This document shows positions 2,781 to 44,574 of a stretch of 64,000 bases of DNA, one piece after another. The position numbers and the translations under genes were made by a program. The notes beneath the pieces were generated by a model that saw only the letters and a list, made by a program, of their open reading frames with translations, searched no databases and was not told the origin of the DNA. The stretch's first letter is position 1; each line of letters opens with the position of its first letter. Location: the NCBI GenBank assembly GCA_038912545.1, contig JBCLFD010000001.1:18956-82955 (forward strand). Reading direction: 5' to 3'. Origin of the DNA: Minisyncoccia bacterium. GTDB taxonomy: Bacteria; Patescibacteriota; Minisyncoccia; Phycocordibacterales; Phycocordibacteraceae.

Positions 2781-2806
2781 TACTAAACAGTATACAATGG
2801 CGTGAC

Positions 2807-8458: not shown

Positions 8459-8740
8459 TTAACGGCGTTTTTCCATCTCTTGGTACACGACAGAACGGTG
8501 AAGAATGGCGAAAATGAGAACTTTGCTAGATTGAATACGAAAAACAACTCGGTAGTCGCCGACACGGAGCTTGCGATATCCCTTCAGAGAACGGCGCAAT
8601 GGTCTGCCAAAGAAGTCAGGGCTCGTGGTGAGCTTTTCATCAATCGCGTCGCGAATCTTTTCTCGCCATGCTGGCGCGAGGTGGGGGATGTCGAACTTAA
8701 CGACGATGTCGCGATAAACAACTTCAAACATTAGCGCCAT
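8459..8740 (-). CDS. RelE/ParE-family type II toxin
   Basis: KLRVGDYRVVFRIQSSKVLIFAILHR matches RelE/StbE. It overlaps the upstream antitoxin gene by 10 nt. Confidence 0.75.
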   Translation of the reverse strand: MALMFEVVYRDIVVKFDIPHLAPAWREKIRDAIDEKLTTSPDFFGRPLRRSLKGYRKLRVGDYRVVFRIQSSKVLIFAILHRSVVYQEMEKRR

Positions 8741-13527: not shown

Positions 13528-14505
13528 ATGCGATATGCGCTTCTGATAGGACTTATGCTCGTGGCGCCGATGATGGTGTCGGCGCAGTATATGACGAGTA
13601 CGGATCCATTCAACCTCACGGTCACGCCTCAGTATCCCGTACCGAATAGTTCTGTCACTCTCACCGCACTCTCTGCGGGCATTGATCTCGCGAACGCGAC
13701 AATGGATGTTTCTGCGAACGGTACGTCGGTCTACAAGGGCTCGGTACGCGCGGTTGATGTCCCAGTCCTAGGCGCCGGCGTGCTCATTAATATACGAGTA
13801 GTGATAACGAGCAATGGCGCGAGCGCGAGCCAGACGGTTTCTGTCCGCCCGCAGGACCTCGTGCTTATAACTGAACCGCTCGCGACCGCACCACCGCTCT
13901 ATCTCGGCAAAGCACTTCCGCCTCTCGGCGGGAGTGTGCGCATTGTCGCCGTAGCAGGATTTAAAAATGGAAGCGGTACCGCGCTTGACCCCGCGAAACT
14001 CTCGTATGCGTGGAAGGTGGACGACGCTCTCCAGGCGAATATGTCGGGTATCGGTAAGAGCGCGATTATCGTCGCGACACCGCTTCAATATCGCAATCGC
14101 AGTGTGTCGGTGGTCGTCCAGAGCCAAGACGGCTCTCTCGTGACCGGCGCATCGCTCTCGCTCGCCCCTCACGAACCGACCGTTCGTATTTATGAAAATG
14201 ACCCCCTGCTCGGCATCCGCTTTGACCGCGCACTATCGTCTTCATACTCCATCACTGATGCAGAATCCTCGCTCTATGCTGGCCTCTATTCATTCCCGAC
14301 TGGAGCGGGCACATCCGCGATTAATTGGTATCTAAATGGTGCACTCGCACAGAGCGGTACAACGATAACACTCCGTCCCACGGGGCTAGGGAAGGGGAAT
14401 GCCTCTCTTTCGCTCGTCGCGGCAATAGGCGACCTTGTGAGCGCAACACAATCGCTTCAAATATTATTCGGGGCGAAGCCCACATCTAATTTCTTCGGCT
14501 TATGA
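13528..14505 (+). CDS. secreted protein (signal peptide, Ala/Ser/Val-rich, beta-rich)
   Basis: MRYALLIGLMLVAPMMVSAQ signal peptide. The listed N-terminal extension is basic read-through, so the start is trimmed. Confidence 0.5.
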   Translation: MRYALLIGLMLVAPMMVSAQYMTSTDPFNLTVTPQYPVPNSSVTLTALSAGIDLANATMDVSANGTSVYKGSVRAVDVPVLGAGVLINIRVVITSNGASASQTVSVRPQDLVLITEPLATAPPLYLGKALPPLGGSVRIVAVAGFKNGSGTALDPAKLSYAWKVDDALQANMSGIGKSAIIVATPLQYRNRSVSVVVQSQDGSLVTGASLSLAPHEPTVRIYENDPLLGIRFDRALSSSYSITDAESSLYAGLYSFPTGAGTSAINWYLNGALAQSGTTITLRPTGLGKGNASLSLVAAIGDLVSATQSLQILFGAKPTSNFFGL

Positions 14506-15458
14506 TGAGAAAAACTTTTATAACTTTGTCGCTCTTCGCCATCGCATTTGTGGCAACGTCCGCGCACGCTCAAGAATTCATCCCGCTCGCGCCCATTCCG
14601 GGCCTCACCACAGGAATAACAGCAGATCAGGCGGGTCTCGCGAACTTTTTAAATAATCTTTACAAATATCTCATTGGTCTTGCTGCTGTTATCGCGGTGG
14701 TAGAGATTATCTGGGGCGGTCTCCTCTATTCCACACAGGATGTGCCGGGATCGAAAACGAATGGAAAAGAAAAAATCCAGAATGCACTCCTCGGCCTCGT
14801 CCTCGTCCTCTCCCCCGTCCTTGTCTTCTCCATCATCAATCCAAGCATCCTGAATCTCTCCATCAATCTCCCGGAGCTCGACACAAAATCCGGCGCTCCG
14901 AATCAAACAGGGGGTACGGGAGGAACTGGGACTCAAACTGTTGATGCTACAACTAACTGTACTGTGACGGGCACGATTGGCATCCTCCAGATTGCGACTT
15001 GTCCAACAGAGTCTGCATCAAAAACATGGGGGGCGACGTGTACGTGGGGTAATTTGTCGTCAATTGAACCCCTCACGATTAGTGCTGGTGGTGCCGTTGC
15101 ACAAAATACAATTTCCTGCTCTAACAAAAACAGTTATGTATTCATAGAGACGATAGGTGTAGTAAGCTTTTCGAAAGCAATAAATACTCTTCGTCCATTA
15201 GCCCAGACTGTCGACAATTCCGAGAATGCATCATCTGCAATTTCGTTTGCGAATATTTGTAATGCAGCAGGACGAAAAACATGCATAAGTGACATCCCTA
15301 AGGTTACTTTTTCCGTTGAGTGTTTACCAAAACCAATGACACAAATTCCTGCCTCATCCGGAGGAAGCGGCAAATGCTATAAAGAGACACTTACTTGTGA
15401 AAATGTAAGCGGAAATACAAAGTGTGTTGCAACTCCTGATTGGACACCATTCCAATAA
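14502..15458 (+). CDS. TrbC/VirB2-like pilin-fold protein with Cys-rich C-terminal extracellular domain
   Basis: Signal peptide, two hydrophobic helices (YLIGLAAVIAVVEIIWGGLLY; ALLGLVLVLSPVLVF), then a ~190-aa domain with 12 Cys. Confidence 0.5.
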   Translation: MMRKTFITLSLFAIAFVATSAHAQEFIPLAPIPGLTTGITADQAGLANFLNNLYKYLIGLAAVIAVVEIIWGGLLYSTQDVPGSKTNGKEKIQNALLGLVLVLSPVLVFSIINPSILNLSINLPELDTKSGAPNQTGGTGGTGTQTVDATTNCTVTGTIGILQIATCPTESASKTWGATCTWGNLSSIEPLTISAGGAVAQNTISCSNKNSYVFIETIGVVSFSKAINTLRPLAQTVDNSENASSAISFANICNAAGRKTCISDIPKVTFSVECLPKPMTQIPASSGGSGKCYKETLTCENVSGNTKCVATPDWTPFQ

Positions 15459-28697: not shown

Positions 28698-31074
28698 ATT
28701 GGGTAAAAAGCGATTAGTGCTCTTGGACACGCACGCGATTATTCATCGCGCGTATCACGCGATACCCGATTTCACCAGCCCTTCGGGGGAGCCGACGGGC
28801 GCTCTTTATGGTCTCGTCTCTATGCTTCTTAAAATCATTGCCGATTTGAAACCCGATTATATCGCTGCTTGTTACGATTTGCCGGGACCAACGATGCGTC
28901 ACGAAGCGTATGCCGAATATAAAGGCACACGAGCAAAGACCGATGATGCATTGGTATCGCAAATTAAACGCTCGCCCAAAGTCTTTGAGGCATTCGGCAT
29001 CCCCACCTATGAACGCGAAGGATTTGAAGCCGACGACCTTCTCGGTACTATCGCGCACGAGATGGCGGTGGAAAAAAATATTGATGTGATTATTGCATCG
29101 GGTGATATGGACATGCTTCAGTGTGTTGACGATGCGCGCGTGCGCGTCTACACGCTGAAGAAAGGCATAAACGATACGATTTTGTACGACGAAAAGGCGG
29201 TAAAAGAGCGATTCGGCTTCGGACCCGAACTTATTCCCGACTACAAGGGCTTGCGCGGGGACCCCTCGGACAATATTAAGGGCGTGCCCGGCATTGGTGA
29301 AAAAACAGCGACCGAACTTATCACGAACTTCGGCTCTATTGAAAAGATGTACGACGCTCTTAAAAAGGATGAAAAGAAATTTGCAGAAAAAGGCATTAAA
29401 CCAAGAATCGTCGCTCTGCTAAAAGAGCACGAAGAAGATGCGCGATTCTCTAAAGCGCTCGCCACTATCCGCACCGATGCACCCATCGCATTTACTCTGC
29501 CAGAAAAAACGTGGAGTGAGAATGTGGATGCAGGGAAAGTATTCGCGCTCTTTGACGAATTCGGCTTCAGATCACTGCGGGAGCGGGCTCGGAGCGTCCT
29601 CATAAAGTCCTCGGGAAAAGAAGAATCTCTAGAAGTCCAGCAGGAACTTATTCCTGAAGAAGTCATTGACCCTACACGTTTAAGTGAGGCACAAGTAAAA
29701 CTGTGGTTGCTGGCTTCTGATTTCACAAATCCGACTCTAGATGACATCCTCGCATATACAAAGAAAACATCATTTGCCGAGGCAGACGCCGAGCTGACCA
29801 AGCTTATCCGCGCCGCGGAGCGAGTGAATAACGTGTATGAGCAGATAGAAAAACCGCTTATTCCCATCGTGCGCCTTATGGGAACGCATGGCGTACTCAT
29901 TGACTCAAAGCTGTTAGCCGGTCTCGCGAAGACCTATACTGCTGAGCTAAAGCAAATAGAAAAAAGTATTTATGCGCATGCGGGACGCGAGTTCAATGTC
30001 AGCTCGCCCAAACAGCTGGGCGAAGTGCTTTTTGACGAATTGCAGATTATTCCAGAACGACAGAAGAAGACCGCAGGCGGGGCTCGCTCTACGCGCGAGA
30101 GTGAGCTGGAAAAGATTCGCGACGCACATCCGATTGTGGCTGACATCTTAGAGTATCGCGAGTTGAAGAAACTTCTCGGCACCTATATTGAAAATCTCCC
30201 CCTAATGCTTGATAAAGAAAATCGCCTTCATGCAGAATTTCTCCAATCAGGCACGACCACCGGTCGCATGGCCTCACAGAATCCGAATCTGCAGAATATC
30301 CCCATTCAGTCAGAGCGCGGACGCGCTATTCGTCACGCCTTCATCGCCCCCCGTGGGTTTGAACTCGTTGCGTTGGATTATTCGCAGATAGAACTACGCA
30401 TCGCCGCAATACTCTCTGGCGACGAGAAACTCTGCGCCATTTTTAAGAATGGTAGGGACGTACATACCGAAGTGGCGGCGCAGGTATTTCATGTTGCGCC
30501 AGAGACAGTGGACTATGAAATGCGTCGGCGAGCAAAGGTTATTAACTTCGGCATCCTCTATGGTATGGGCATCAATGCCTTGCGCCAGCAACTCGGTACG
30601 ACAACTGCCGAGACACACGCCTTTTATGAAGAATACTTCGGACAGTTCAAGACGCTTTCTGAATATCTAGAAAAGACAAAAGGATTCGCACGCAAAAACG
30701 GCTACACCGAAACCCTTTTTGGCAGACGCAGACAGTTTCCAGAAATGAAGTCGGCACTCCCGTATGTTAGAGCACAGGCGGAGCGCATGGCGATTAATGC
30801 GCCGATACAGGGCACGCAGGCAGACATCATTAAGCTCGCTATGGTGCGCGTGGATGAAATGCTAACGAAAGAAGGCGCAAAAGATGACACACATTTGATT
30901 CTTCAAGTACACGATGAACTTGTGTATGAGATACGCGAATCGCGCGTGAAAGAACTCACCAGTAAGATTCAGCACATTATGGAAAATGTATTGCCGGAGA
31001 AAGAGAGAAGAGGTGTGCCGATTGTCGCAGTGCCAAAAGTAGGAAGTAACTGGGGAGAATTGAAACAGATATGA
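28687..31074 (+). CDS. polA: DNA polymerase I (5'-3' exonuclease + polymerase domains)
   Basis: 5' nuclease LLLDTHAIIHRAYHA. Polymerase motifs A (DYSQIELR), B (RRRAKVINFGILYG) and C (QVHDEL). Confidence 0.9.
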   Translation: MRGKLGKKRLVLLDTHAIIHRAYHAIPDFTSPSGEPTGALYGLVSMLLKIIADLKPDYIAACYDLPGPTMRHEAYAEYKGTRAKTDDALVSQIKRSPKVFEAFGIPTYEREGFEADDLLGTIAHEMAVEKNIDVIIASGDMDMLQCVDDARVRVYTLKKGINDTILYDEKAVKERFGFGPELIPDYKGLRGDPSDNIKGVPGIGEKTATELITNFGSIEKMYDALKKDEKKFAEKGIKPRIVALLKEHEEDARFSKALATIRTDAPIAFTLPEKTWSENVDAGKVFALFDEFGFRSLRERARSVLIKSSGKEESLEVQQELIPEEVIDPTRLSEAQVKLWLLASDFTNPTLDDILAYTKKTSFAEADAELTKLIRAAERVNNVYEQIEKPLIPIVRLMGTHGVLIDSKLLAGLAKTYTAELKQIEKSIYAHAGREFNVSSPKQLGEVLFDELQIIPERQKKTAGGARSTRESELEKIRDAHPIVADILEYRELKKLLGTYIENLPLMLDKENRLHAEFLQSGTTTGRMASQNPNLQNIPIQSERGRAIRHAFIAPRGFELVALDYSQIELRIAAILSGDEKLCAIFKNGRDVHTEVAAQVFHVAPETVDYEMRRRAKVINFGILYGMGINALRQQLGTTTAETHAFYEEYFGQFKTLSEYLEKTKGFARKNGYTETLFGRRRQFPEMKSALPYVRAQAERMAINAPIQGTQADIIKLAMVRVDEMLTKEGAKDDTHLILQVHDELVYEIRESRVKELTSKIQHIMENVLPEKERRGVPIVAVPKVGSNWGELKQI

Positions 31075-32270: not shown

Positions 32271-34094
32271 ATGTGTGGAATCGTCGGCTACATCGGTAAA
32301 AAAGATGCAACTCCATTTCTTATTGAAGGATTACGAGCGCTTGAGTACCGCGGGTATGATTCGGCAGGACTCTATGTTGTCGGTTCCGGTGTCATAAAAC
32401 GCGCTGGAAAAGTTGAAGTGCTTGCGTCAGTTATTCCGAAAGATTTTATTGGGCACGTCGGGATCGCACATACCCGATGGGCAACACACGGACCTCCCAC
32501 AGAAGCGAATGCTCATCCGCACAGCGACAGCACCGAAACTATTTGGTTGGTGCACAACGGCATTATAGAAAACTATGCCGAGATACGAGAGGCACTCATT
32601 CAAAAAGACATCACCTTTTCGTCGGACACAGATACTGAAGTTCTCGCAAAATTAATTGGAGAAAAATATAAAACTAATGTTCTTCTCGAACACGCCGTTG
32701 AAAAAGCGCTTGAAGAAGTGCGCGGTACCTATGGCATCGCGGTCGTCTCGACACGAGAACCCGAGAAAATAGTCGCGACCCGTATGGGGAGCCCACTGCT
32801 TATAGGAGTGGGCCCCGATGGTTATTATCTCGCCTCGGACGCGACTCCTATTCTCCCGCATACGCGTGACGTTATCTATTTAGATGATGGCGAAATAGCG
32901 ATCCTCACACCGACCACGTATAGCATTCGCATACGAGCTGGAGATCAGGTGCAGAAAACCATAGAGACCCTCGAGTGGGATTCTGAAGCGACCAAGAAAC
33001 AAGGATACGAGCATTTCATGCTGAAAGAAATCATGGAGGTGCCCGAGGTTATCCGAAACACGCTTCGCGGACGTCTGGACTCAAAAGAGGGAACCGCCGT
33101 ACTCGGTGGCCTTCGTGATGTAGCAAACCGCCTTGTTGATGTACGACGCATCATCATTACCGGATGCGGAAGTGCGTATTATGCCGGACTTGTGGGGCAG
33201 GAGCTTATTGAAGAATTCTCTAGTATCCCGGTTGAAGTAGAGGTGGCGTCAGAATTACGGTATCGGCGTTTTACCGCGGATCAGGAGCACACGATTCTTA
33301 TCGCGGTCTCACAGTCGGGTGAGACCGCAGACACGCTTGAAGCCATTCGTATCGCAAAAAAACACGGAATGCTCACTCTCGGAATCGTAAATGTCGTTGG
33401 ATCTTCGATCGCACGCGAGACCGACGCCGGAGTGTATAACCACGCTGGTCCAGAAATAGGCGTCGCCTCAACCAAAGCGTTTGTCTCGCAAGTTGTCGTC
33501 CTCTCCTTAATTGCACTTATTCTCGGCCGTACTCATGGAATGAAAAAAGAAGAAAGACTAAAAATAATACAGGCGCTCTCTAAACTTCCGGAGAAAGCAG
33601 AGTTGGTCCTCGGCTCGAGAGATTCCATCGCGGCTCTCGCAAAAAAATATTCGCATGTGCAGAACGCATTGTATATCGGACGGAAATATCAGTGCCCGGT
33701 TGCCTATGAAGGAGCTCTGAAGCTTAAAGAGATTTCCTATATCCACGCGGAGGGCTACGGAGCGGGCGAAATGAAGCACGGCCCCATTGCGCTTATTGAT
33801 CCATCGTTCCCCACCATCGCTCTGGCTCCCAGAGATTCGCTTTACGAAAAAATGTGCTCCAACATAGAAGAAATCAGAGCGCGTGGCGGGGAGGTGCTCG
33901 CGGTGACCACCGAAGGTAATGAAGACATCAAACGGCTTACCCAGGATGTTATGTATATACCCGAGACGCACGAAGCCCTCTTACCGGTACTCACCACGAT
34001 ACCGCTCCAGCTTTTTGCTTACTATGTGGCGAAAGAACGCGGGCTTCCTATCGACAAGCCACGCAATCTCGCAAAATCTGTCACAGTGGAATAA
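32271..34094 (+). CDS. glmS: glutamine--fructose-6-phosphate aminotransferase
   Basis: N-terminal MCGIVGYIG Ntn Cys, two SIS domains, C-terminal SVTVE. Confidence 0.95.
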   Translation: MCGIVGYIGKKDATPFLIEGLRALEYRGYDSAGLYVVGSGVIKRAGKVEVLASVIPKDFIGHVGIAHTRWATHGPPTEANAHPHSDSTETIWLVHNGIIENYAEIREALIQKDITFSSDTDTEVLAKLIGEKYKTNVLLEHAVEKALEEVRGTYGIAVVSTREPEKIVATRMGSPLLIGVGPDGYYLASDATPILPHTRDVIYLDDGEIAILTPTTYSIRIRAGDQVQKTIETLEWDSEATKKQGYEHFMLKEIMEVPEVIRNTLRGRLDSKEGTAVLGGLRDVANRLVDVRRIIITGCGSAYYAGLVGQELIEEFSSIPVEVEVASELRYRRFTADQEHTILIAVSQSGETADTLEAIRIAKKHGMLTLGIVNVVGSSIARETDAGVYNHAGPEIGVASTKAFVSQVVVLSLIALILGRTHGMKKEERLKIIQALSKLPEKAELVLGSRDSIAALAKKYSHVQNALYIGRKYQCPVAYEGALKLKEISYIHAEGYGAGEMKHGPIALIDPSFPTIALAPRDSLYEKMCSNIEEIRARGGEVLAVTTEGNEDIKRLTQDVMYIPETHEALLPVLTTIPLQLFAYYVAKERGLPIDKPRNLAKSVTVE

Positions 34095-34106
34095 TCTCTC
34101 CTTGAT

Positions 34107-35954
34107 CTACCGCCCTCTATTCTGATAATTGTTTTGAATTTTTTCTTTAACTTGATAACCATAATTATTTTCATTTTGTCTGCGTGATTCAGAATTACTT
34201 TCGGTATGATCAGAAGGCTTCCTGGTATACGGAAGAGTTATAGGTAATGTGATAGGTAGTATAATTGGTTTTATAATGGTTGGAATTGGGGAAAATGTTG
34301 GCAAAGGAAGTATTGTTGGTGCTGGCATTATGATGGGCGTAGGATCTGGAGATAAAACTGGCACAGTAGTTGTGGGTGTGGTTGTTATAGGAGTTGTTGT
34401 AACTGGTGCAATTGTGGTTGGTGGTGTTGTAGTAGCAACAGGCGTGGTAATTGGGGTTGGGTATAGTTGATTCGCCATAGTGATTGCTTTGTCAGCTTTA
34501 ACCAAACCATAACCGTGCCATTTATCATACCCAACTGTTCCAATATCTATGGCGGAACTATCAAGAATATTTCTAATTTCATCATTTATTCTTCCGTTAC
34601 CATTTGAGTCAGTGATGTTCATTCCCATAAGTAACGCTGCTACACCGGTAACATGAGGAGCTGCCATAGATGTTCCATTGTATAAAATATTACCTCCACC
34701 AAGTTTTGTTGAGTTAATATTTACTCCAGGTGCTGATAGTTCTATTTTATTACCCGTTGCGGAAAAACAGGGACGAGCATTTGATGAATCAATTGCAGCC
34801 ACAGCAATTACTGAAGAATACATCGCTGGATACTCTGTAGTATTTGTATCGCCAAGACAAGTTCCAGAATTACCAGCCGAGGCCACATTGATAATTCCCT
34901 TGGCTTCTAATGCGGTAAAAGCTGACTCAAGTCCATTGCCAGGATTGGTTGGTGTACCATAACTACTATTTGTAATTTGTATACCGTTATTGACTGACCA
35001 TTGTAACGCTGCAATAATATCACTCGTATATCCCTTTCCTTGAGCATCTAAAACTTTCAAAGCATAAATTTTTACATCAGGTGCTACACCAATAACACCA
35101 ACATTGTTTTTTATAGCCGCAATAGTTCCAGCAATGTGTGTACCATGCCCATTATCATCAAGTGGATCCGCTGTACCATTTACGAAATTAAACCCACCAG
35201 CATAATTTAAATTTAAATCCGTATGGTTGTAGTCAATACCAGTATCTAGGACTGCCACTTTAATTGTCTTTCCTGTTTGACCAGAAGCATGCGCAGAATC
35301 AGATCCAATGTGCAAAACACCCCAAGTATTTGTGTATTCTTGAACAGCACGAATGTAAACTAACTCGTCTATTTCAACAGAAGCAACATTAGGATCTTTA
35401 GAAAGATTTATTACTTCTGAATCAGAAACTTCTGCAGCAATAGCTGGAATAATGTTAAACGTGTGTTTTCTTTTTCCACCTCTAGAAAAAATAAAATCCT
35501 CGTCTGCTTTAATTGGGTTTCTTTTATAGTTAATGATGACTCTTTTTGTAGTTGTAGGTGTAGAGGACACTGCAACATTTGTGGTTTGAGAATTAATTGG
35601 GCGATTTTCTAAAAATGAAGGAGACTCTAATTTGGCAATGGGGTTAGCATTAGTAGATTTAGTTAACGTATTTAATATACTTAAAGTTTTTGGACCGACT
35701 ACACCAACGGTTTCAACGCCATATTTTTTTTGAAAAGCTGTAACAGCTTTTTTTGTTAGTAGGCCATAATAACCAGTAACCAGACCTTCTGGATATATAG
35801 AAATATCTGTAGACAAAAGTTTTTGTAAATTTGAAACATCTTCACCTCTAGATCCAAGAGTAAGATTTCTTGTAAAGGTTGCAGAATCTGCCAAAACTGA
35901 TGAGGTAAATAAAAATGGAACTACTAATAAAAATGGTAATAATTTTTTTTTCAT
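34107..35954 (-). CDS. subtilisin-family (S8) serine protease with N-terminal peptidoglycan-binding domain and Thr/Pro-rich C-terminal linker; the gene is AT-rich
   Basis: Signal peptide. PG_binding_1 (LQKLLSTDISIYPEGLVTGYYGLLTKKAVTAFQ). Asp/His/Ser triad (DTGIDYNH, HGTHIAG, GTSMAAPHV). TTPPTTIAPVTTTP repeats. Confidence 0.8.
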   Translation of the reverse strand: MKKKLLPFLLVVPFLFTSSVLADSATFTRNLTLGSRGEDVSNLQKLLSTDISIYPEGLVTGYYGLLTKKAVTAFQKKYGVETVGVVGPKTLSILNTLTKSTNANPIAKLESPSFLENRPINSQTTNVAVSSTPTTTKRVIINYKRNPIKADEDFIFSRGGKRKHTFNIIPAIAAEVSDSEVINLSKDPNVASVEIDELVYIRAVQEYTNTWGVLHIGSDSAHASGQTGKTIKVAVLDTGIDYNHTDLNLNYAGGFNFVNGTADPLDDNGHGTHIAGTIAAIKNNVGVIGVAPDVKIYALKVLDAQGKGYTSDIIAALQWSVNNGIQITNSSYGTPTNPGNGLESAFTALEAKGIINVASAGNSGTCLGDTNTTEYPAMYSSVIAVAAIDSSNARPCFSATGNKIELSAPGVNINSTKLGGGNILYNGTSMAAPHVTGVAALLMGMNITDSNGNGRINDEIRNILDSSAIDIGTVGYDKWHGYGLVKADKAITMANQLYPTPITTPVATTTPPTTIAPVTTTPITTTPTTTVPVLSPDPTPIIMPAPTILPLPTFSPIPTIIKPIILPITLPITLPYTRKPSDHTESNSESRRQNENNYGYQVKEKIQNNYQNRGR

Positions 35955-36076
35955 ATATTAATTATATCATACATTACTCCACTCCACGCGTCAGACCCGA
36001 ATGTCTTGCCTTGCCTCGAAAAAACGAATGAAGACATTCATTTGTTACTCGGCTCGTTAGGTAGTAGGGTGGCGGG

Positions 36077-37528
36077 ATGGGCAAAGAAGAAAGCGTTATA
36101 CGATTTGAAGGGGTTTCCTTCGGATACGGAGTGAATAAGCCGATATTGGATGCGGTGGATTTTCCTATTCGCAGAGGAATGAAGATAGCGGCGATGGGCC
36201 AGAATGGCGCGGGGAAGTCCACTCTCTTCGGTCTCATGACCGGCGAACTCTCGCCCGACGCTGGAGAGATACATCGCGCGACAGGACTCACAGTCGCAAC
36301 TGCTGTACAGACGATACCGCGTGGCGACTTGGAACTCACGGTTCGTGAATTCTTTGAGGAATGTTTTAAGGAGAAAGTGTATGACATTGATCCGAAGATA
36401 GATGCGGTGCTGGAGGCGGTGAACTTGAAGGCGCCCAACGACCGCACCGTGAAGAGTTTCTCGGGCGGCCAGCAAGCACGACTTCTCCTGGCCTCGGCGC
36501 TCATCCAGAATCCTGACCTGCTTCTCTTGGACGAGCCCACAAATAATTTGGATACCGCAGGCATTGAACACCTCACGAATTTTTTGATTGAATATCCGAA
36601 GTCAGTCATCGTTATCTCGCACGACGCAGACTTCTTAAATGCATTCACTTCGGGCGTGCTGTATCTGGATGTCTTTACACGGAAGATAGAGCAGTATTCA
36701 GGGAACTATACCGACGTGCAGGCGGATATTCTTGCGCGTATTGATCGTGAGAATAGAAAGAATGCGCAGTTAGAGAAAAAGATCCAAGAAAATAAAGATA
36801 AAGCGAACTTCTTCGCGCAGAAGGGCGGGAAGATGCGTCTCGTTGCGAAGAAAATGCGTACGGAGGTTGAAGAAATGGAAGAAGCGAAGGTGGATGTTCG
36901 GAAGGAGGACAGGACGATTCGACCATTTATTATTCCGGCACAGCCAGCATTGAGCGGTACGGTGCTTTCGCTTACGTCATATACCGTGCACAAGAATCAT
37001 AAGCCGGTCACGAAGAAGGCGAACATCTCACTACGAAAGAATCAACACCTGCTTTTGAAAGGTCCGAACGGCATCGGCAAGAGCACACTCTTGGAGCGCA
37101 TCGTGCTCGGAACACCGGAAGGGTCAAAGATTACGGCAGGAGTGAAGGTTGGTTATTATCGACAAGACTTCTCCACTCTGGACTTTGACGCCACCGTTTA
37201 CGACGCACTACGCAAGGCGATGGGGAAACCCGACGACGAGCGCATGCGCGCGACCGCTGCTGGATTTCTAATCACCGCAGATGTCATTCATACAAAAATC
37301 GGGAGTTTGTCAGAAGGGCAGAAGGGCTTGGTGGCCTTCTGCTCGCTCGTGCTAGAAAGGCCGGGACTTTTAATATTAGACGAGCCGACGAATCACATCA
37401 ACTTCCGTCACCTGCCCATCATCGCGAAGGCGCTCTCTGCGTATGAAGGCGCGATGATACTCGTTTCACACGTGCCTGAATTTGTGTCCAAAATCCGCAT
37501 CGACGACACGCTGGATCTCGGCGCTTAA
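36077..37528 (+). CDS. ABC-F family ATPase (tandem ABC domains, no TMD)
   Basis: Two Walker A sites (GQNGAGKST; GPNGIGKST), two signature motifs (FSGGQQ; LSEGQKG), inter-domain linker. Confidence 0.8.
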   Translation: MGKEESVIRFEGVSFGYGVNKPILDAVDFPIRRGMKIAAMGQNGAGKSTLFGLMTGELSPDAGEIHRATGLTVATAVQTIPRGDLELTVREFFEECFKEKVYDIDPKIDAVLEAVNLKAPNDRTVKSFSGGQQARLLLASALIQNPDLLLLDEPTNNLDTAGIEHLTNFLIEYPKSVIVISHDADFLNAFTSGVLYLDVFTRKIEQYSGNYTDVQADILARIDRENRKNAQLEKKIQENKDKANFFAQKGGKMRLVAKKMRTEVEEMEEAKVDVRKEDRTIRPFIIPAQPALSGTVLSLTSYTVHKNHKPVTKKANISLRKNQHLLLKGPNGIGKSTLLERIVLGTPEGSKITAGVKVGYYRQDFSTLDFDATVYDALRKAMGKPDDERMRATAAGFLITADVIHTKIGSLSEGQKGLVAFCSLVLERPGLLILDEPTNHINFRHLPIIAKALSAYEGAMILVSHVPEFVSKIRIDDTLDLGA

Positions 37529-37908
37529 ACATTCTTTCTTTTTTGTTCGCGGTCGCGGACTTCGTGCTCGTCCATGCCGAAGTGGTGCGCGAATTCGTGC
37601 CAAATCGTATCGGCGACTACGTCGCGCACGTCCTCGTCGTCCTCGCGCGCCGCCTCCTCAATCGGTTTCTGATAGAGCGTGATGGTGTCTGGTAGCGAGA
37701 GGTCGTCGCCATAATTGCGTGCAGTGAGTGGGACACCCTGATAGAGCCCGAGAAGGGTCTCGCCCTGCCCGAGCTGTTCCAGCTCGCGCACCTCTGCCGA
37801 CGGCTCGTCCTCGATGAGGATGGCGACATTCTTAATCTTCTCGCGGACCCAGTTGGGCAATCGCTTAACGCCCTCGCGAACTAGCTGTTCAAATTCTATA
37901 CGGTTCAT
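37525..37908 (-). CDS. metallopeptidase-family protein (Zincin_1-like, HEFAHH motif)
   Basis: NVAILIEDEP...LGLYQGVPL...TIWHEFAHHFG. The listed N-terminus is the translated tRNA-Lys and was trimmed. Confidence 0.6.
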   Translation of the reverse strand: MNRIEFEQLVREGVKRLPNWVREKIKNVAILIEDEPSAEVRELEQLGQGETLLGLYQGVPLTARNYGDDLSLPDTITLYQKPIEEAAREDDEDVRDVVADTIWHEFAHHFGMDEHEVRDREQKRKNV

Positions 37909-37919
37909 GTATCTTGTTG

Positions 37920-37992
37920 TGCGCCCGGTTGGGATCGGACCAACGACCTCATCCTTAAAAGGGATTTGCTCTACCAACTGAGCTACGGGCGC
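37920..37992 (-). tRNA. tRNA-Lys (anticodon TTT)
   Basis: Cloverleaf folded by hand. 7-bp acceptor, GTAGCTCAGTTGGTAGAGC D-arm, anticodon loop CTTTTAA, T-arm GTTGG/CCAAC. Confidence 0.85.
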
Positions 37993-38102
37993 GAAGTGAG
38001 GTCAGGAACATGATGTATTTAATCATATTCCTGCGCCGAACGAGCGGCCGTATGTAATCATACGGGCGCGTAGGTATAACTTACTCTATTTCTGTAGTTT
38101 AT

Positions 38103-39047
38103 CTAGTACGAGAATGCATCAACTGTGTTACCGAGCGTGTCCACAAGTTTTACGATTTCGTGCTTGGTGCGCCACATGCTCGTGGAGCGACCGAGATAAA
38201 TGCGCCACGTGTCGCCCATAAAGTCGACATCATTTTTGTGCGTTTCTACGCACCCGTTATAATTCAGATATTTAACGAGGAATGCTTGGCAGGAACCGCT
38301 TAACCCCACGGGCGGAGAGAGTGTGACCTGACAGCGCGAAAGCCTATTCACATACTCAATGCATGCCACATCGCGTATGTAATTGTTGCCGTAGAGCGCA
38401 GGAAGTTCGTCGGCTGGCACGGGACAGTTTTGTGGGAGAGACGGCGAGAATTTCTGGAACGTGCTGAAGTAGCCGATACATTTATTCTCGCGGAAGGAGG
38501 CACCGATGGGCGACTGACCGCTCACGATAATCGCGCGCTTGCCGGGCGCGAGCACAATGTCTTGTATCGCATTCACGACGCCCGAGGTCGGCACCTCGGT
38601 ACCTTTCGGTATGATTGAAGATGCACCGGTCGCTTCGCTCATAATCCTCCATCCTGAGATATTAATCGGAACTCTGGAGTTGTAGGAGGCCTGAAGTTCA
38701 ATCATTTCGTTTGCCGGATTGCTTGAGCCCGCGCTACTCACCGAACGGCTCATCGTGACGAGTCCGCGATATTCCGAAGGAGGACCGAAAACGCCTCCTA
38801 TAATCGTTGGGAGCGCTTGGTTTGGAACAGTCCCGCCACCGCTTGAGGAGTCGGACAGAGAAACATTAGAGCCACCAATAGTGAATGGCGCGCGCGGGAG
38901 CGAGAGATAAGTTCCACCACCGAGCACGCCAGGTTGAGCGAGCCGAGGACCGGTGAATGCGAGCGGATGAGTCGGACCGCCGGTTGCTATCCAAATGAGA
39001 AAGATGAAGGCGAATACTCCGACGAAGAACCACGCATCATGTTCCAT
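38103..39047 (-). CDS. membrane-anchored secreted protein (possible lamin-tail-like beta domain)
   Basis: N-terminal TM. Gly/Ser-rich. ISGWRIMSEATGASSIIPKG resembles LTD domains. Weak match. Confidence 0.4.
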   Translation of the reverse strand: MEHDAWFFVGVFAFIFLIWIATGGPTHPLAFTGPRLAQPGVLGGGTYLSLPRAPFTIGGSNVSLSDSSSGGGTVPNQALPTIIGGVFGPPSEYRGLVTMSRSVSSAGSSNPANEMIELQASYNSRVPINISGWRIMSEATGASSIIPKGTEVPTSGVVNAIQDIVLAPGKRAIIVSGQSPIGASFRENKCIGYFSTFQKFSPSLPQNCPVPADELPALYGNNYIRDVACIEYVNRLSRCQVTLSPPVGLSGSCQAFLVKYLNYNGCVETHKNDVDFMGDTWRIYLGRSTSMWRTKHEIVKLVDTLGNTVDAFSY

Positions 39048-39066
39048 ACTTTAAATAGTAGCAGTA

Positions 39067-39612
39067 TTAATTAGAGAGCGAGAGTGCCGCTTTCAGCCGT
39101 GCCTCCTTCCCGCGTGTGGAGGGAGGGAGTGCGGAGAGCGCGCGGCGCGCCTCGCGCTCGGTGTAGCCGAGCGCGACAAGTGTATCAAACACTTCACCGT
39201 CGGCATTGTCGTGTGCGGCGTCGCCCACCTTTTCAGAGAGTTCCACCAGCATCTTCTCGGCGCTCTTCTTGCCGAGCCCGACAACCTTGGTGAGATATTC
39301 CAAATCGCGCTTTCCAATCGCTCCCTCGAGCGCCTCGCGCGGCGCTCGGCGCAAGACCGAGAGCGCCGTCTTCGGTCCCACTCCCGAGACGGTGAGCATA
39401 AGCTCAAAGAAATCGCGGTCGGCGGTCGTGGTAAAGCCGTAGAGCTCCATACCGTCTTGGCGGACGACGAGGTGCGTCGCGAGCGTCGTCTCGTGTCCGA
39501 CGGTGAGGTCGTCGGTCGCGGTCATTCGCACTTCAAGACCGAGACCGGCGACTTCAATAACGGCGCTCGTCACTCCCGTCTCCAGCACCCTCCCACGTAT
39601 CTGCTGAATCAT
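39067..39612 (-). CDS. ruvA: Holliday junction DNA helicase RuvA
   Basis: MIQQIRGRVLE...LYGF...FELMLTVSGVGPKTAL. Start trimmed. Confidence 0.85.
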   Translation of the reverse strand: MIQQIRGRVLETGVTSAVIEVAGLGLEVRMTATDDLTVGHETTLATHLVVRQDGMELYGFTTTADRDFFELMLTVSGVGPKTALSVLRRAPREALEGAIGKRDLEYLTKVVGLGKKSAEKMLVELSEKVGDAAHDNADGEVFDTLVALGYTEREARRALSALPPSTRGKEARLKAALSLSN

Positions 39613-39666
39613 TCGCTTATGATACAGGTTTGCGAAGTTAGAACCAATACAGTAGTATGCGCTCAC

Positions 39667-39933
39667 ATGGCAATCACCAGTTCCGCGAAGAAGGCGATAC
39701 GCTCCTCGGCAAGGAAGCACGTCTTCAACCTGCGCCGTAAGAACGTGCTCACTGACACGACCAAGGCGTTTATGAAGGCACTTGTAGCGAAAGACATCGC
39801 TGGTGCGACGAAGATTCTCCCCACGGCGTATAAGGCAATAGATAAAGCCATGAAGACCGGAGTTATTAAAAAGAATACGGCGGCGCGCAAGAAGTCCCGC
39901 CTCGCCCTCTCCCTCAAACGCGCTCGCGCATAA
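39667..39933 (+). CDS. rpsT: 30S ribosomal protein S20
   Basis: MAITSSAKKAIRSSARKHVFNLRRK. Start trimmed from the long antisense-of-ruvA ORF. Confidence 0.85.
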   Translation: MAITSSAKKAIRSSARKHVFNLRRKNVLTDTTKAFMKALVAKDIAGATKILPTAYKAIDKAMKTGVIKKNTAARKKSRLALSLKRARA

Positions 39934-40036
39934 CTTTTTCCAGAACGCAAAACGTCAATCGCCCGTAAGGGCGATTGACGTTACTGTGCGTCAGGCATAG
40001 AGTGGCGGTTGGTTCTTTTATAGAAAGGGGTTCCAA

Positions 40037-40699
40037 GTGAAAAACGGACATTTCAAATCGTGTGTTACACCACATGACTGCTGGTGTGAGATGTGGCTGT
40101 ATGGAGGCGTACTTAGCCTCGGAGTTGGAGTCCTTATCGTACAGATTGTTGGAGGGCTTCTCTCGGGGAGTCTTGCCCTTCTTGCGGACTCCGGACATGT
40201 GGCGGTCGACAACCTCGTCCTCGTTGGTGTCCTCGTCATCGCCTACTTAGTGAAGAAGTACCGACACCAAGAGAAGATGATTAGGATGTGGGGTGGCTAT
40301 GCTAATGCGTTTCTTATGCTCGGCATCGGTGTGTGGGTGTTGGTAGAAGCCATCGACCGATGGCAGTACCCTCTGCCTATCCAGAGTCCAACACTCATTG
40401 TGTTCGCGACACTTGGAGGATTTGGTAACTGGTTACAGTACTCGCTACTTGCCACATTAGCATCCGCCCGGCATACGGTGACCAGCAAGAGCGCACGGCT
40501 ACACGTTCTGTCAGATCTGTGGCAAAGCGTAGCGGTAGTTATTGGCGGTGTGGTTGTGTATGTGACGGACTGGTCGAGGGTCGACACGGTACTGTCTTTC
40601 ATCATTAGTGCCGTCATGTTCTATTGGGCCGGCCAGATCTTCTGGTGGAGCAAGAAGGGAGTTCTTTCTGCGGGGCATCATGGGCACCATCACCACTAG
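40037..40699 (+). CDS. cation diffusion facilitator-family transporter (TMD only, His-rich tail)
   Basis: SLALLADSGH...D motif, 5-6 TM segments, natural HHGHHHH C-terminus. Confidence 0.7.
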   Translation: MKNGHFKSCVTPHDCWCEMWLYGGVLSLGVGVLIVQIVGGLLSGSLALLADSGHVAVDNLVLVGVLVIAYLVKKYRHQEKMIRMWGGYANAFLMLGIGVWVLVEAIDRWQYPLPIQSPTLIVFATLGGFGNWLQYSLLATLASARHTVTSKSARLHVLSDLWQSVAVVIGGVVVYVTDWSRVDTVLSFIISAVMFYWAGQIFWWSKKGVLSAGHHGHHHH

Positions 40700-40714
40700 C
40701 ACCTGTGTGCATTT

Positions 40715-40745
40715 GAGACCGGACTTGTTCCGGTCTCTTTTTATA
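40715..40745 (+). terminator. Rho-independent terminator (GAGACCGGA-cttgt-TCCGGTCTC + TTTTTAT)
   Basis: Perfect 9-bp GC stem plus a T-run right after the CDF gene. Confidence 0.6.
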
Positions 40746-40784
40746 CTACTTTTGTACGCGCACTACGAAGCTTTAGCGAAGTAG

Positions 40785-40856
40785 TGCTCTCGGTCAGAAT
40801 CGAACTGACATTGGCCCCTTCGGAGGGGGCTATCCTATCCGTTGAATGACGAGAGC
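40785..40856 (-). tRNA. tRNA-Arg (anticodon CCG)
   Basis: Hand fold. Acceptor GCTCTCG/CGAGAGC, anticodon stem GCCCC/GGGGC, loop CTCCGAA, T-arm GTCAG-TTCGATT-CTGAC. Confidence 0.8.
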
Positions 40857-40939
40857 ATTCTTTCTCCATATTACTCCTCATTAGATTTGGCACAGGCGGG
40901 GAGCCGCATTGGTGCTTGCCCCGTAGCTAACGCGAAGCG

Positions 40940-41488
40940 TTATGGTACTGGGGACAATGCATTCTTGATTTTTTCTTTAACTTGTATAGGAACGTCTTTA
41001 TCCTCAGCAAGTTTTGTGAAAAATGGATATAGGTAACGCCGATTATTTTTTGAGATTAGCAACTGAAAAAATTTATCTGTATAGAAATATGTGTCAGAAG
41101 CATCAAAATCATACATTACAAGTTTTGAAACATTGATATCATCGTAATCATTGATAGAAATCCAACCAATTTTACTCCCATATTTTATACCGGTCGCCCT
41201 GCTGAAAAAACAGCCCGCGGGGCAATCTCGAGCCTCGCCATAATTTATTTTAAAAACTTTCAGATTTTGTGTCGGAACATTGACAAGAATATTAACCCGT
41301 TGACTTTTGGGGAAATCAGCACTTTTAACAAAATTATTAATAACATCGTCGGAACCTATAGATGCTAGAAAATATGGCAAAATTATGTCTCCCTGTTTTT
41401 GTATAAAAATATAACCAACCACACCAAGAATGATAATGATTATTCCAATCAAAATTATATTCACAAATCCTTTTTGATTTATTTTCAT
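40940..41488 (-). CDS. membrane-anchored protein of unknown function (AT-rich gene)
   Basis: MKINQKGFVNIILIGIIIIILG TM anchor. The listed N-terminus overlaps tRNA-Arg(GCG) and was trimmed. C-terminus ...IQVKEKIKNALSPVP. Confidence 0.5.
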   Translation of the reverse strand: MKINQKGFVNIILIGIIIIILGVVGYIFIQKQGDIILPYFLASIGSDDVINNFVKSADFPKSQRVNILVNVPTQNLKVFKINYGEARDCPAGCFFSRATGIKYGSKIGWISINDYDDINVSKLVMYDFDASDTYFYTDKFFQLLISKNNRRYLYPFFTKLAEDKDVPIQVKEKIKNALSPVP

Positions 41489-41597
41489 AGATTTATTAGT
41501 TATAATTTTCGACTTTATGATTAAAAAATTTTCTTCCCCCAAAATTAAAATACGGTTCAAGCCGATGTTTCCCGAGCCTATTCTACCATATCCTATT

Positions 41598-41672
41598 TGG
41601 TGCTCTCGACAGGAATCGAACCTGTATTGGTAGCTCCGCAAGCTACTGTCCTATCCGTTGAACGACGAGAGC
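41598..41672 (-). tRNA. tRNA-Arg (anticodon GCG), CCA encoded
   Basis: Hand fold. Same acceptor/D-arm as the CCG isoacceptor, anticodon stem GTAGC/GCTAC, loop TTGCGGA, T-arm ACAGG-TTCGATT-CCTGT. Confidence 0.75.
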
Positions 41673-41705
41673 AATATCGTGACTCTACCGTGTCTGCTCA
41701 TTTTT

Positions 41706-42179
41706 TCAAAACCCGACCCACGCGGCGACGACGTCCGACATCGCGTGGTGGTGTTCGCCCTCATCTACTTTCTCTAAGAAGTATTCGTACACCGCGTCTG
41801 CGTCCACACCGTCAAGCGGTATCATCAAGTGTGGCGAGAGCCAGCTGTCAGTTTTGATAGAAAGAAGAGGAGGAAGCCGGTCCTCAATATCTTCAAGTGC
41901 TGAGAATGAGGTCATCCGCTCAAAAGGGTGGAGCTCTTCGCCAATCATCAATCCTTGTTCAATGATGCGAAAGGTGTGGGTCGGCGGATGCTTCGTGCTG
42001 TGAAGCGCGATAACGACCGTCGCGATGACGATGAGTACCGCGAAGAGATAGTTGCTGAATAAGATAGAAGCGATTGTCCCGGCGACCGCGATGATGCCGA
42101 GCGCCCAGTACCAGTCGGCGCTCTTCGGATTCGGGTCGTATTCTCTGCCTTCCCATTCAAAAAGGACCTTTTGAGCCAT
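41706..42179 (-). CDS. small two-TM membrane protein of unknown function
   Basis: MAQKVLFEWEGREYD...WYWALGIIAVAGTIASILF...LFAVLIVIATVVIAL. Upstream extension rejected because a sigma70 promoter for the opposite strand lies there. Confidence 0.45.
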   Translation of the reverse strand: MAQKVLFEWEGREYDPNPKSADWYWALGIIAVAGTIASILFSNYLFAVLIVIATVVIALHSTKHPPTHTFRIIEQGLMIGEELHPFERMTSFSALEDIEDRLPPLLSIKTDSWLSPHLMIPLDGVDADAVYEYFLEKVDEGEHHHAMSDVVAAWVGF

Positions 42180-42808: not shown

Positions 42809-42921
42809 TCTATTGTAGGATTGTGGTTGCCATATTTGACTTATTATCTCAATAATATCATTTTTCAGCTCACTAAACCATTGCATTAATTTTATACCTT
42901 GTGTATACTATAGTTATCACT

Positions 42922-43614
42922 ATGAAATCAACACAGCAACAAAATATGTTCGGTTTATCTAATAAACAGACTGGTTATTCTGTTTATAACGAGGATGCAA
43001 AAAAACGAGCAAAGCAAAATACACTCTCGGAACTTTATCCTAAATTGCCGAACAAAAAATTTGATGTAATTTATGCTGATCCACCTTGGGATTATAATGG
43101 TAAGTTGCAATTTGATAAAAGTAGTACAAATGTAGAAAATCTGGATTTGTCGCGGAAGATATTTATCAGTTCGGCTTCATTTAAATATCCGACACTAAAA
43201 ACAACTGAACTAATGAAATTACCTGTTCAAGAAATTGCAAAAGGTGATTGCTTATTATTCATGTGGACATCAAATCCACATTTGGCTCAAGCGATAGAAC
43301 TTGGTAATGCCTGGGGTTTTGATTATAAAACTGTTGCTTTTGTTTGGGATAAAATGAATCACAATCCTGGGCAATACACACTTTCAAATTGTGAGATATG
43401 TCTAGTATTCAAAAGAGGCAAGATACCAAGACCACGCGGAGCAAGAAATATAAAACAGTTGGTTAGAAGTCCGAGAAAAAAACACAGCGAGAAACCAATG
43501 GAGGTAATTCAAGCAATAGAAAAAATGTTTCCTAATCAAGAACGCATCGAATTATTTGCAAGACGAAAAACGGACGGTTGGTCAGTTTGGGGATTAGATG
43601 TGTTTAACGAGTAA
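42922..43614 (+). CDS. MT-A70-family N6-adenine DNA methyltransferase (R-M system M subunit)
   Basis: DVIYADPPWDYNGK (DPPW motif IV), MT-A70-like fold order. AT-rich. ATG at 42922 preferred over the listed GTG at 42901. Confidence 0.75.
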   Translation: MKSTQQQNMFGLSNKQTGYSVYNEDAKKRAKQNTLSELYPKLPNKKFDVIYADPPWDYNGKLQFDKSSTNVENLDLSRKIFISSASFKYPTLKTTELMKLPVQEIAKGDCLLFMWTSNPHLAQAIELGNAWGFDYKTVAFVWDKMNHNPGQYTLSNCEICLVFKRGKIPRPRGARNIKQLVRSPRKKHSEKPMEVIQAIEKMFPNQERIELFARRKTDGWSVWGLDVFNE

Positions 43615-43624
43615 AACAAATAGT

Positions 43625-44236
43625 CTACATCAGCAAACGCTTCAATTTCTTATTGAAATGGTCAACTAGAGATTTTCCATTTAACGAATTACTCCACATA
43701 AAGAAATGGCCAGAATGGCCTGTATACCAACAGTGAATTTCTCTTACTCTTTTTGGATCTCTAGCAATATCACCTTGAAATACGACCCAAAAAGGTAAAA
43801 CATTCTGACCAAGTTTTCCTTGTTCTCTTAATATCTTCAATAGACCCGGGGTAAAAAACTTATTGGATCTTTCATGGGCATTTCCTCTACCAGCTTTTCT
43901 TGGCTTTCCTTCTACCCACCCGTCTTGTCTTTTAACTTCCACATAAAGAGTCTTTTTAGTCTTTAGATTATCAATAGCAAAATCTGGCACTACTCCATGA
44001 ACCCAAGTTTCGTTCGGATTATAAATTGCAGATAAAGTTTCTTTGCTGAGTTTTATTTTTGAATAGATATCTTTGAATTCTCGTGGTTTAGAACGAACTC
44101 TAAAATCGGTACCCTTGAATTCTTTTGAGAGTATTTCATAAAAATTTTTCTCAGCAATCCCAGCCTTACCTCCGCTAGCATTTTGCCAATTCTCTCTTTT
44201 TCGTAATGCTTTTGTTCCCATAAATTTATTTTTCAA
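43625..44236 (-). CDS. putative Type II restriction endonuclease (PD-(D/E)xK)
   Basis: VPDFAIDNL...YVEVKRQ fits PD...ExK. Convergent with the MTase, directly downstream of and overlapping a C-protein gene. Confidence 0.55.
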   Translation of the reverse strand: MKNKFMGTKALRKRENWQNASGGKAGIAEKNFYEILSKEFKGTDFRVRSKPREFKDIYSKIKLSKETLSAIYNPNETWVHGVVPDFAIDNLKTKKTLYVEVKRQDGWVEGKPRKAGRGNAHERSNKFFTPGLLKILREQGKLGQNVLPFWVVFQGDIARDPKRVREIHCWYTGHSGHFFMWSNSLNGKSLVDHFNKKLKRLLM

Positions 44237-44444
44237 AAATCATTAGTTTATCAAGTGAGATCTCAAGAGCTTTAGCAATTTTTTCTATGTTTTGGAGTGT
44301 GATATTTTTTTCTGCACGCTCAATCATTCCAACATAGGTTCGATGGACACCTGCTCGTGAAGCTAATTCTTCCTGAGACAAATCTAAGGATAATCGTTTT
44401 TCGCGTACTTTATTTCCAAACTTTACCAACACATCTTTTTTCAT
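44226..44444 (-). CDS. controller (C) protein, XRE-family HTH regulator
   Basis: 72-aa HTH_3 (LSQEELASRAGVHRTYVGMIERAEKNITLQNIEKIAKAL); overlaps the R gene start by 11 nt. Confidence 0.7.
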   Translation of the reverse strand: MKKDVLVKFGNKVREKRLSLDLSQEELASRAGVHRTYVGMIERAEKNITLQNIEKIAKALEISLDKLMIFEK

Positions 44445-44448
44445 AATG

Positions 44449-44462
44449 ATAACTATAGTATA
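44449..44462 (-). promoter_or_regulatory. C-box-like operator/promoter element TATACTATAGTTAT, 5 nt 5' of the C-protein ATG (second copy 42904-42917 5' of the M gene)
   Basis: Identical 14-mer (21-nt near-identity including ATGAAA) in the same orientation relative to both genes. Contains the palindrome ACTATAGT and a TATAGT/TAGTTAT -10-like hexamer. Confidence 0.45.
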
Positions 44463-44574
44463 TGCTCTTGCTAATTTAAGCTCTACATACTACAGTTAGC
44501 ATATATGTTAATCTAATTATTAGACGACGCTTCGCGCCGACCCCATTTCGGCTTCCAATTCCGATTTCCAATTT

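Follow-up and report, generated by a model that had tools for sequence, protein, structure and literature searches.

A 17-nt string shared by the 3' ends of two AT-rich genes is very probably a coincidence

The DNA analysed here is a stretch of 64 kb (the window), in which a gene for a secreted subtilase and an orphan gene end in nearly the same nucleotides. The initial annotation took this for an identical 24-nt 3' end, and read it as a recombination-derived module or a short sorting or recognition tag on horizontally acquired secreted proteins. Was a piece of DNA exchanged between the two genes, do their products share a signal, or did the same letters arise twice? A shared tag or module, if true, would mean that an uncultured lineage with reduced genomes has a new kind of sorting signal or of cassette mechanism; coincidence at the background level removes a false lead. 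The evidence below makes coincidence very probable, rather than an exchanged module or a common tag.

The two genes and the extent of the shared string

Both ORFs were confirmed on the minus strand, with ends at 34107 and 40940 (Table 1). The subtilase begins with a signal-peptide-like N-terminus, followed by PG_binding_1 (residues 36-94), an Inhibitor_I9-like domain (157-201) and Peptidase_S8 (228-468), and it finishes with a Pro/Thr-rich linker and a polar basic tail. The match to Peptidase_S8 (PF00082) has an E-value of 9.4e-53 and scores 179.8 bits, where the curated threshold is 21.8, and the catalytic residues D237, H270 and S429 are invariant across the family alignment.

The orphan gene lies between two tRNA-Arg genes, as annotated, and likely starts at 41488 because the longer ORF, 40940-41641, overlaps one of them. 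Its product has an N-terminal hydrophobic anchor and a conserved DCPxGCF core, and twelve homologues were found in Patescibacteria-type metagenome assemblies. Profile searches against Pfam, NCBIfam and the PDB gave no match. The AlphaFold model (pLDDT 45.6) is too poor for a fold search; only a predicted helix at residues 168-178, which holds the shared motif, reaches a pLDDT of ~70. The N-terminus, QKGF-x-N-I followed by a hydrophobic helix, resembles a prepilin cleavage/methylation motif, and one homologue has a faint match to archaeal Pilin_N (E=0.14). Assignment as a type IV (prepilin-type) pilin was rejected, as there is no Pfam or NCBIfam N_methyl match and position +5 is not Glu. A HEAT-like repeat in the tail was also rejected, Pfam scans of the long-form homologues having given nothing.

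The AT-richness noted initially holds for both (36.6% GC in the subtilase gene, 32.1% in the orphan), against a window mean of 49.8% and immediate flanks of ~51%, not the ~55% then assumed. Both genes use A/T-ending codons nearly exclusively (CAA, GTT, AAA, GAA), and both proteins have at the N-terminus a hydrophobic segment for export or anchoring, as read from their sequences. When the subtilase was compared with the orphan by BLASTP, they aligned best over the 8-residue motif (E=0.24). A comparison of the family alignments with hhalign reached a probability of 0.1% and did not match the tails. By both comparisons the genes are unrelated, in agreement with the initial annotation.

The exact match is 17 nt long, ATTTTTTCTTTAACTTG, or CAAGTTAAAGAAAAAAT on the coding strand, and encodes the six residues QVKEKI; the proteins end in ...YGYQVKEKIQNNYQNRGR (subtilase) and ...VPIQVKEKIKNALSPVP (orphan). 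Twenty-four matched positions can be reached only by adding two single-base indels. In frame, only three of the 7 nt past the 17-mer match, and an ungapped scan with the 24-mer, allowing 3 mismatches at most, returned the query alone. The similarity does end abruptly on either side, as had been noted, and without gaps the flanks are random. Across 33900-41800, a search for repeats found, besides the 17-mer, only the two homologous tRNA-Arg genes, with no boundaries and no repeat or hairpin context. The defined block with recognisable boundaries that is expected of a shared cassette is thus absent: 17 nt are identical and random flanks follow.

Table 1. Coordinates of the features in the window
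Feature	Position	Strand	Remarks
Secreted subtilase gene	34107..35954	-	615 aa; 36.6% GC
Transferred subtilase unit	34102..35971	-	high nucleotide identity (92-94%) to other genomes
17-nt exact string, subtilase copy	34138..34154	-	residues 601-606, 9 residues before the C-terminus
Orphan gene	40940..41488	-	182 aa; 32.1% GC
17-nt exact string, orphan copy	40968..40984	-	residues 169-174 of 182 aa, 8 residues before the C-terminus; predicted C-terminal helix
tRNA-Arg(CCG)	40784..40856	-	downstream neighbour of the orphan
tRNA-Arg(GCG)	41598..41672	-	adjoins the orphan on its upstream side; shares bases with the 5' extension of mechanical ORF 40940-41641
Control 17-mer	30109..30125	+	within the DNA polymerase I gene
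Control 17-mer, identical partner copy	8646..8662	-	in frame in the ParE-toxin gene (8459-8740, minus strand)

Short shared strings expected in the window

A 17-mer chosen in advance would have an expected count of 0.03 and would be apparently significant, but this is not the right test because the 17-mer was chosen after being seen. Any dispersed exact repeat of at least 17 nt was counted instead, in the window and in 200 shuffles that keep the local dinucleotide composition. The shuffles contain 0.30 such repeats each on average, and 25.5% of them (n=200) contain at least one. The real window contains two, the QVKEKI pair and a control pair, GAAAAGATTCGCGACGC (EKIRDA), shared by the DNA polymerase I and ParE-toxin genes. 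At the protein level, 16 hexapeptides are common to different proteins of the window where residue shuffles predict 9.6, and KEKIQN of the subtilase tail also occurs in a pilin-like protein of the window. With their own codon usages, the two genes would spell one and the same peptide in identical codons at a probability of ~0.08. In length, in-frame nature and frequency, the QVKEKI 17-mer is at the background level of the window. As a calibration, these 64 kb contain at least two cases of unrelated genes that are identical in frame over 17 nt and six residues.

On the reading as coincidence, two unrelated low-GC genes, each with a lysine- and glutamate-rich C-terminal tail, would both contain QVKEKI by chance, and the same six residues would be spelled by the same 17 nt because nearly all codons of both genes end in A or T. 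Nothing would have been exchanged between them.

What stands out is the position. Both copies are on the same strand, fewer than 10 residues from the C-terminus, and no other gene for an exported protein in an 8-kb stretch is as AT-rich as the two that hold them. By a rough estimate, the chance that at least one of the 16 shared hexapeptides lies within 20 residues of both C-termini is ~8%, and lower if codon identity is required. The near-C-terminal position of both copies is therefore unlikely to a degree, though it was noticed post hoc.

History of the motif and of the genes

In each family the motif belongs to a tail of the family's own, inherited vertically, and it decays independently in the two. 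Among the subtilase orthologues the decay is graded, from QVKEKI (P0015) through QVKERI (P0016) and EVKEKS (P0017) to QVKEIK (P0018), the last already at 61% identity. More distant orthologues have unrelated polar tails, and only the four or five relatives nearest to the subtilase have the polar tail with QVKEKI. L001, another genome, has the same 17-mer at the same place in its subtilase. In the orphan family, seven of 13 sequences carry DKDVPxQVKEKI[KN]N (e.g. DKDVPxQVKEKIKNLR) and the remainder VPRNVLLKIANG, so that NVLLKI replaces the motif in about half of the family; the orthologue L002 matches 16 of the 17 nt and has a synonymous AAG codon. Orthologues that predate an exchange should be without the block, yet orthologues of each gene elsewhere already bear the motif. 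Since they do so in other genomes, the motif predates the co-residence of the two genes; the hexapeptide would have been inherited inside each family before both came to share a genome.

The initial annotation had held that a string present only twice, with its motif at non-conserved positions in homologues, would indicate chance or local duplication. This is largely what was found: the string occurs only twice in the window and the motif is not conserved past the closest homologues.

Acquisition from outside, proposed initially for secreted proteins in both cases, holds up for the subtilase, and export segments are present in both proteins. The subtilase is horizontally acquired, as a gene-sized unit moving between Patescibacteria-type genomes, because the unit has a nucleotide identity of 93.7% to L001 in a different gene neighbourhood whereas core genes common with L001 are merely ~73% identical. 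Identity to L004, also with different neighbours, is 91.8%. The unit begins 17 nt ahead of the ATG (TATGATATAATTAATAT, which contains TGnTATAAT) and continues to 5 nt past the stop. Viral contigs scanned for a phage vehicle contained no relatives of the subtilase or of the orphan family. The 5' junction of the subtilase unit, TATGATATAATTAMTATATGAA, had 19 matches in metagenome contigs, none encoding a subtilase; the string is AT-rich, promoter-like and generic. Searches with the subtilase tail, a 42-residue biased query of low power, gave no candidates in an index of 5.8 billion proteins and, with HMMER, nothing at E<=0.001 among 1.84 billion representatives.

A tag could still have arisen by convergence, if QVKEKIxN formed a C-terminal amphipathic helix read by a common export, anchoring or processing factor in the mobile exported proteins of the lineage. 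The export or anchor segments, the place of the motif 8-9 residues from each C-terminus, its retention by the orthologues nearest to each gene and the predicted helix of the orphan agree with such a role, but the rapid loss within each family (QVKEIK, NVLLKI) and the failure of the two family profiles to align do not. No other protein of the window has the motif at its C-terminus; the 64 kb hold no further copy apart from a V-R-EKIKN, encoded at 37828-37848 within a zincin-like gene that is GC-rich. Across one genome per species from 185,579 species, 108 sites encode QVKEKI[KQ]N; they lie in unrelated proteins, mostly internally, and in neither family. Sorting-signal models in Pfam and NCBIfam match neither protein, and the residues after the motif form no hydrophobic stretch. 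A common tag is thus very unlikely.

An ancient micro-recombination or gene conversion, in which a patch of ~18-24 nt was copied between the family ancestors in a low-GC donor and then inherited, is just as improbable. It would account for the shared frame and orientation of the 17 nt and for the 24 positions matched in the initial gapped alignment, and the low GC of both families (32-40%) at any host GC fits a common low-GC donor pool. A patch of 17 nt is, however, at the chance level for the window, has neither junction features nor extended similarity, and is so short as to be indistinguishable from coincidence. The differing codon of L002 is expected from the peptide and codon bias, not from shared DNA ancestry. 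The proposed module thus comes down to 17 nt without boundaries, in a motif that orthologues of each family already have.

A broader proposal, that QVKEKIxN is a short C-terminal helix, independently selected or anciently exchanged, in low-GC mobile exported proteins of Patescibacteria and recognised by a lineage-specific surface-attachment or processing system, is less credible still. A functional DNA or RNA element near the gene 3' ends, such as a regulatory or slippage site, is the least probable of all: the orientation is the same in both genes and an A6 run is present, but there are only two copies, the run as read is not a canonical in-frame X XXY YYZ heptamer, orthologues alter the string by synonymous and non-synonymous substitutions, and the surroundings have no repeat or hairpin.

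With coincidence as the preferred explanation, the actual content of the locus is a pair of AT-rich genes for exported proteins, each acquired independently. One encodes a PG-binding subtilase and moves between genomes as a gene-sized unit; the other encodes a small membrane-anchored protein and lies between two tRNA-Arg genes.

Comparison with known systems

The shared string is most like the short exact matches that arise by chance from compositional and codon bias. Like the EKIRDA string of the Pol I and ParE genes, it has 17 nt and six codons in frame; it differs in that both copies lie near the C-termini encoded by AT-rich genes for exported proteins.

Known C-terminal sorting signals (LPXTG/sortase, PEP-CTERM, GlyGly-CTERM and the T9SS C-terminal domain) are also found near the C-terminus of exported proteins, and in the subtilase a Pro/Thr-rich linker precedes the motif and basic residues follow it. 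The motif differs from them in having no signature, transmembrane stretch, Pfam or NCBIfam match, or recurrence in the proteome sampled.

Low-GC islets beside tRNA genes offer a parallel in the sharp drops of GC (32-37% against ~51%), the tRNA neighbours of the orphan and the differing genomic contexts. Integrase, direct repeats and attachment-site duplication were not seen, and the subtilase unit is just the gene with 17 nt ahead of it and 5 nt behind it.

The subtilase itself, its QVKEKI polar tail of four or five closest relatives apart, resembles the Peptidase S8 proteins with N-terminal PG_binding_1 that are wide in Patescibacteria/CPR metagenome assemblies: it has the same order of PG_binding_1, I9-like and S8 domains, the same catalytic D/H/S, and hundreds of homologues in the databases.

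Positions and composition of the two genes

The first gene product is a secreted subtilase. It begins with a signal-peptide-like N-terminus read from the sequence (MKKKLLPFLLVVPFLFTSSVLA). D237, H270 and S429, its catalytic residues, do not vary across the family alignment. Beyond the S8 domain the chain continues as a Pro/Thr-rich linker and ends in a tail that is polar and basic. No match in Pfam, NCBIfam or PDB was obtained for the second gene, an orphan between two tRNA-Arg genes; its product carries a hydrophobic anchor at the N-terminus and a core with the conserved sequence DCPxGCF. Its start at 41488 is preferred because a longer mechanical ORF runs into the tRNA-Arg(GCG) gene. Both genes lie where the initial annotation placed them and are AT-rich as it described (36.6% and 32.1% GC, compared to 49.8% for the whole window and ~51% for the immediate flanks).

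Features in and around the two genes (window coordinates unless indicated)
Feature	Position	Strand	Details
Subtilase ORF	34107-35954	-	615 aa
PG_binding_1	subtilase residues 36-94		domain match
Inhibitor_I9	subtilase residues 157-201		weak match
Peptidase_S8	subtilase residues 228-468		E=9.4e-53
Subtilase unit	34102-35971		compared with L001 7984-9907, L004 7984-9827 and L005 (loci of other genomes)
Other genes common with L001	56995-59551, 62146-63779
Orphan ORF	40940-41488	-	182 aa; start biologically plausible
17-mer ATTTTTTCTTTAACTTG	34138-34154, 40968-40984		codes QVKEKI
Second 17-mer GAAAAGATTCGCGACGC	30109-30125	+
Its reverse complement	8646-8662	-
Third motif site NWVREKIKNVAIL	37828-37848
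Pilin-like ORF	14502-15458
tRNA-Arg(CCG)	40784-40856
tRNA-Arg(GCG)	41598-41672
Restriction-modification islet	42901-44574		~35% GC
MT-A70 methyltransferase	to 43614	+	in islet
MunI-family endonuclease	43625-44236	-	in islet
HTH_3 controller-like ORF	44226-44444	-	72 aa, in islet
Inverted repeat TATACTATAGTTATCA	42904-42919, 44449-44464		16 nt, perfect

A coincident match at the gene ends

The proteins end in ...NNYGYQVKEKIQNNYQNRGR (subtilase) and ...DKDVPIQVKEKIKNALSPVP (orphan). An identical 24-nt end had been claimed; the exact identity is 17 nt, and two single-base indels are required to reach the 24 positions. A search for the 24-mer with up to three mismatches found no match besides itself. 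When the two genes are aligned without gaps from the 17-mer outward, the next in-frame bases agree at 3/7 and the flanks are random, confirming the reported abrupt stop of similarity. The view that the genes do not share ancestry also holds: BLASTP of the subtilase against the orphan protein gave nothing beyond an 8-residue match (E=0.24), and comparing the family alignments as profiles gave no tail match (probability 0.1%).

The sequence match is real, yet it is an ordinary coincidence and no biological feature. A test of the pre-selected string looks significant, with an expectation of 0.03, but this value applies to a string picked after being seen. The more suitable question is the frequency of dispersed exact repeats of 17 nt or more, whatever their sequence. 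In 200 shuffles that keep dinucleotide content within 500-nt blocks the mean was 0.30 per shuffle, with at least one in 25.5%; the real window has two. The second lies in frame in the DNA polymerase I and ParE toxin genes, which have no evident relation, and gives the common hexapeptide EKIRDA; it is a chance match of equal size and type that serves as an internal control. Among proteins, a rough set of 65 genes (18,895 aa) has 16 hexapeptides that recur in different proteins, where shuffling the residues gives 9.6. QVKEKI is one of the 16, and KEKIQN of the subtilase tail also occurs in a third protein, a pilin-like ORF. For equal peptides, codon usage as found in each gene would yield identical codons for Q-V-K-E-K with a probability of ~0.08: AAA accounts for 29/33 and 16/17 of the Lys codons, and CAA for 12/13 and 5/7 of the Gln codons. 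Thus, codon bias in both genes together with a coinciding peptide produced identical DNA.

The family history of the motif is the decisive evidence on its origin. Subtilases of the clade have inherited the tail, which erodes as they become more distant: the homologues P0015 to P0018, at 91%, 87%, 80% and 61% identity, have the tails YGYQVKEKIQNNHQNRGQ, QVKERI, EVKEKS and SQVKEIKES, respectively, and farther homologues have unrelated tails rich in K/E/N/S/R. In the L001 orthologue the same 17 nt occupy the corresponding position. In the orphan family, 7/13 members end in DKDVPxQVKEKI[KN]N and the remainder continue from VPRNVLLKIANG... into a longer tail; one orthologue spells the motif CAAGTTAAGGAAAAAATT, a synonymous difference within the 17-mer, whose nucleotide identity is itself not conserved. 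Since the motif is present in each family's own tails, each version predates the co-residence of the genes, and exchange within this genome is excluded.

A functional or ancient-exchange origin, taken jointly, is improbable. In its favor, both copies lie fewer than 10 residues from the C-terminus. With 16 hexapeptides in common and proteins of typical length, at least one such pair is estimated to arise ~8% of the time, and less often if codon identity is demanded, for a pattern itself spotted post hoc; no explanation other than chance is at hand for this position. The proposed shared module or sorting tag did not hold up. Six-frame translation of the window has three [VI][KR]E[KR]I[KQ]N sites: the two copies above and a third within a zincin-like metallopeptidase gene that is GC-rich. 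QVKEKI[KQ]N, searched as a degenerate DNA pattern in one genome per species, gave 108 sites in 185,579 species, mostly internal, in many unrelated proteins and phyla; where a stop codon is near, the frame is mostly a short and spurious one, and none of the sites belongs to the subtilase or orphan family. Sorting-signal models matched neither protein, no hydrophobic stretch follows the motif, and tail-only queries of large protein libraries, which have low power, found nothing. A poor AlphaFold model of the orphan (pLDDT 45.6) shows residues 168-178, with the motif, as a C-terminal helix.

The subtilase gene as a transferred unit

The subtilase gene behaves like a gene-sized transferred unit with sharp borders. 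Its nucleotide identity is 93.7% to L001 and 91.8% to L004, compared to only ~73% for other genes common with L001, and it is found in four different neighborhoods, in hosts of 32-50% GC; the suggested horizontal acquisition is thus upheld for this gene. Identity starts exactly 17 nt upstream of the ATG (TATGATATAATTAATAT, which includes an extended -10-like TGnTATAAT) and stops 5 nt past the stop codon (ATCAA); only 12 nt separate the subtilase and glmS stops. Neither an integrase nor flanking repeats turned up around the unit.

In L005 (1-3528) the subtilase is rearranged: 1-286 is homologous to the N-terminal part (window 35687-35971) but inverted, and a 573-aa opposite-strand gene stands between it and the S8 part (2114-3523). 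Most PG_binding_1 + S8 homologues (P0020-P0034) have a Pro/Thr-rich linker and then a polar stretch, which finishes in Arg/Lys (...GRGR, ...RKR, ...LRR); several have an LPAPAL-like motif ~15-20 residues before the C-terminus. This C-terminus might be a lineage-specific feature.

The orphan family and neighboring elements

The AT-rich restriction-modification islet adjoins tRNA-Ser. Of the two arms of its inverted repeat, one directly precedes the methylase ATG and the other the controller ATG; the repeat is probably a shared operator (C-box), not a mobile-element end.

The orphan has 12 homologues, the named ones from Patescibacteria-group assemblies; family GC is ~32-33% in hosts of 41-52%, and contexts differ. 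An AT-rich element, AAAATTTTTTAATC, is common to family genes ~20-35 nt upstream of the start codon (compared in window 41489-41597, L002 1-82 and L006 1430-1469). A conserved downstream sequence common to L002 and L006 is missing from the window. The N-terminus (residues 1-30 of the orphan and its aligned homologues) reads M-N-Q-K-G-F-x-N-I, then ~20 hydrophobic residues. It resembles a prepilin-type (class III) signal, without Glu at +5 and with no N_methyl model match; in one homologue the archaeal Pilin_N model matches faintly (E=0.14). Both in the window, with tRNA-Arg(GCG), and in L006, with tRNA-Leu, the family gene lies directly 3' of a tRNA gene. The two tRNA-Arg genes on either side of the AT-rich orphan are 74% identical; one has the anticodon GCG, where the corresponding tRNA-Arg of most bacteria has ACG.
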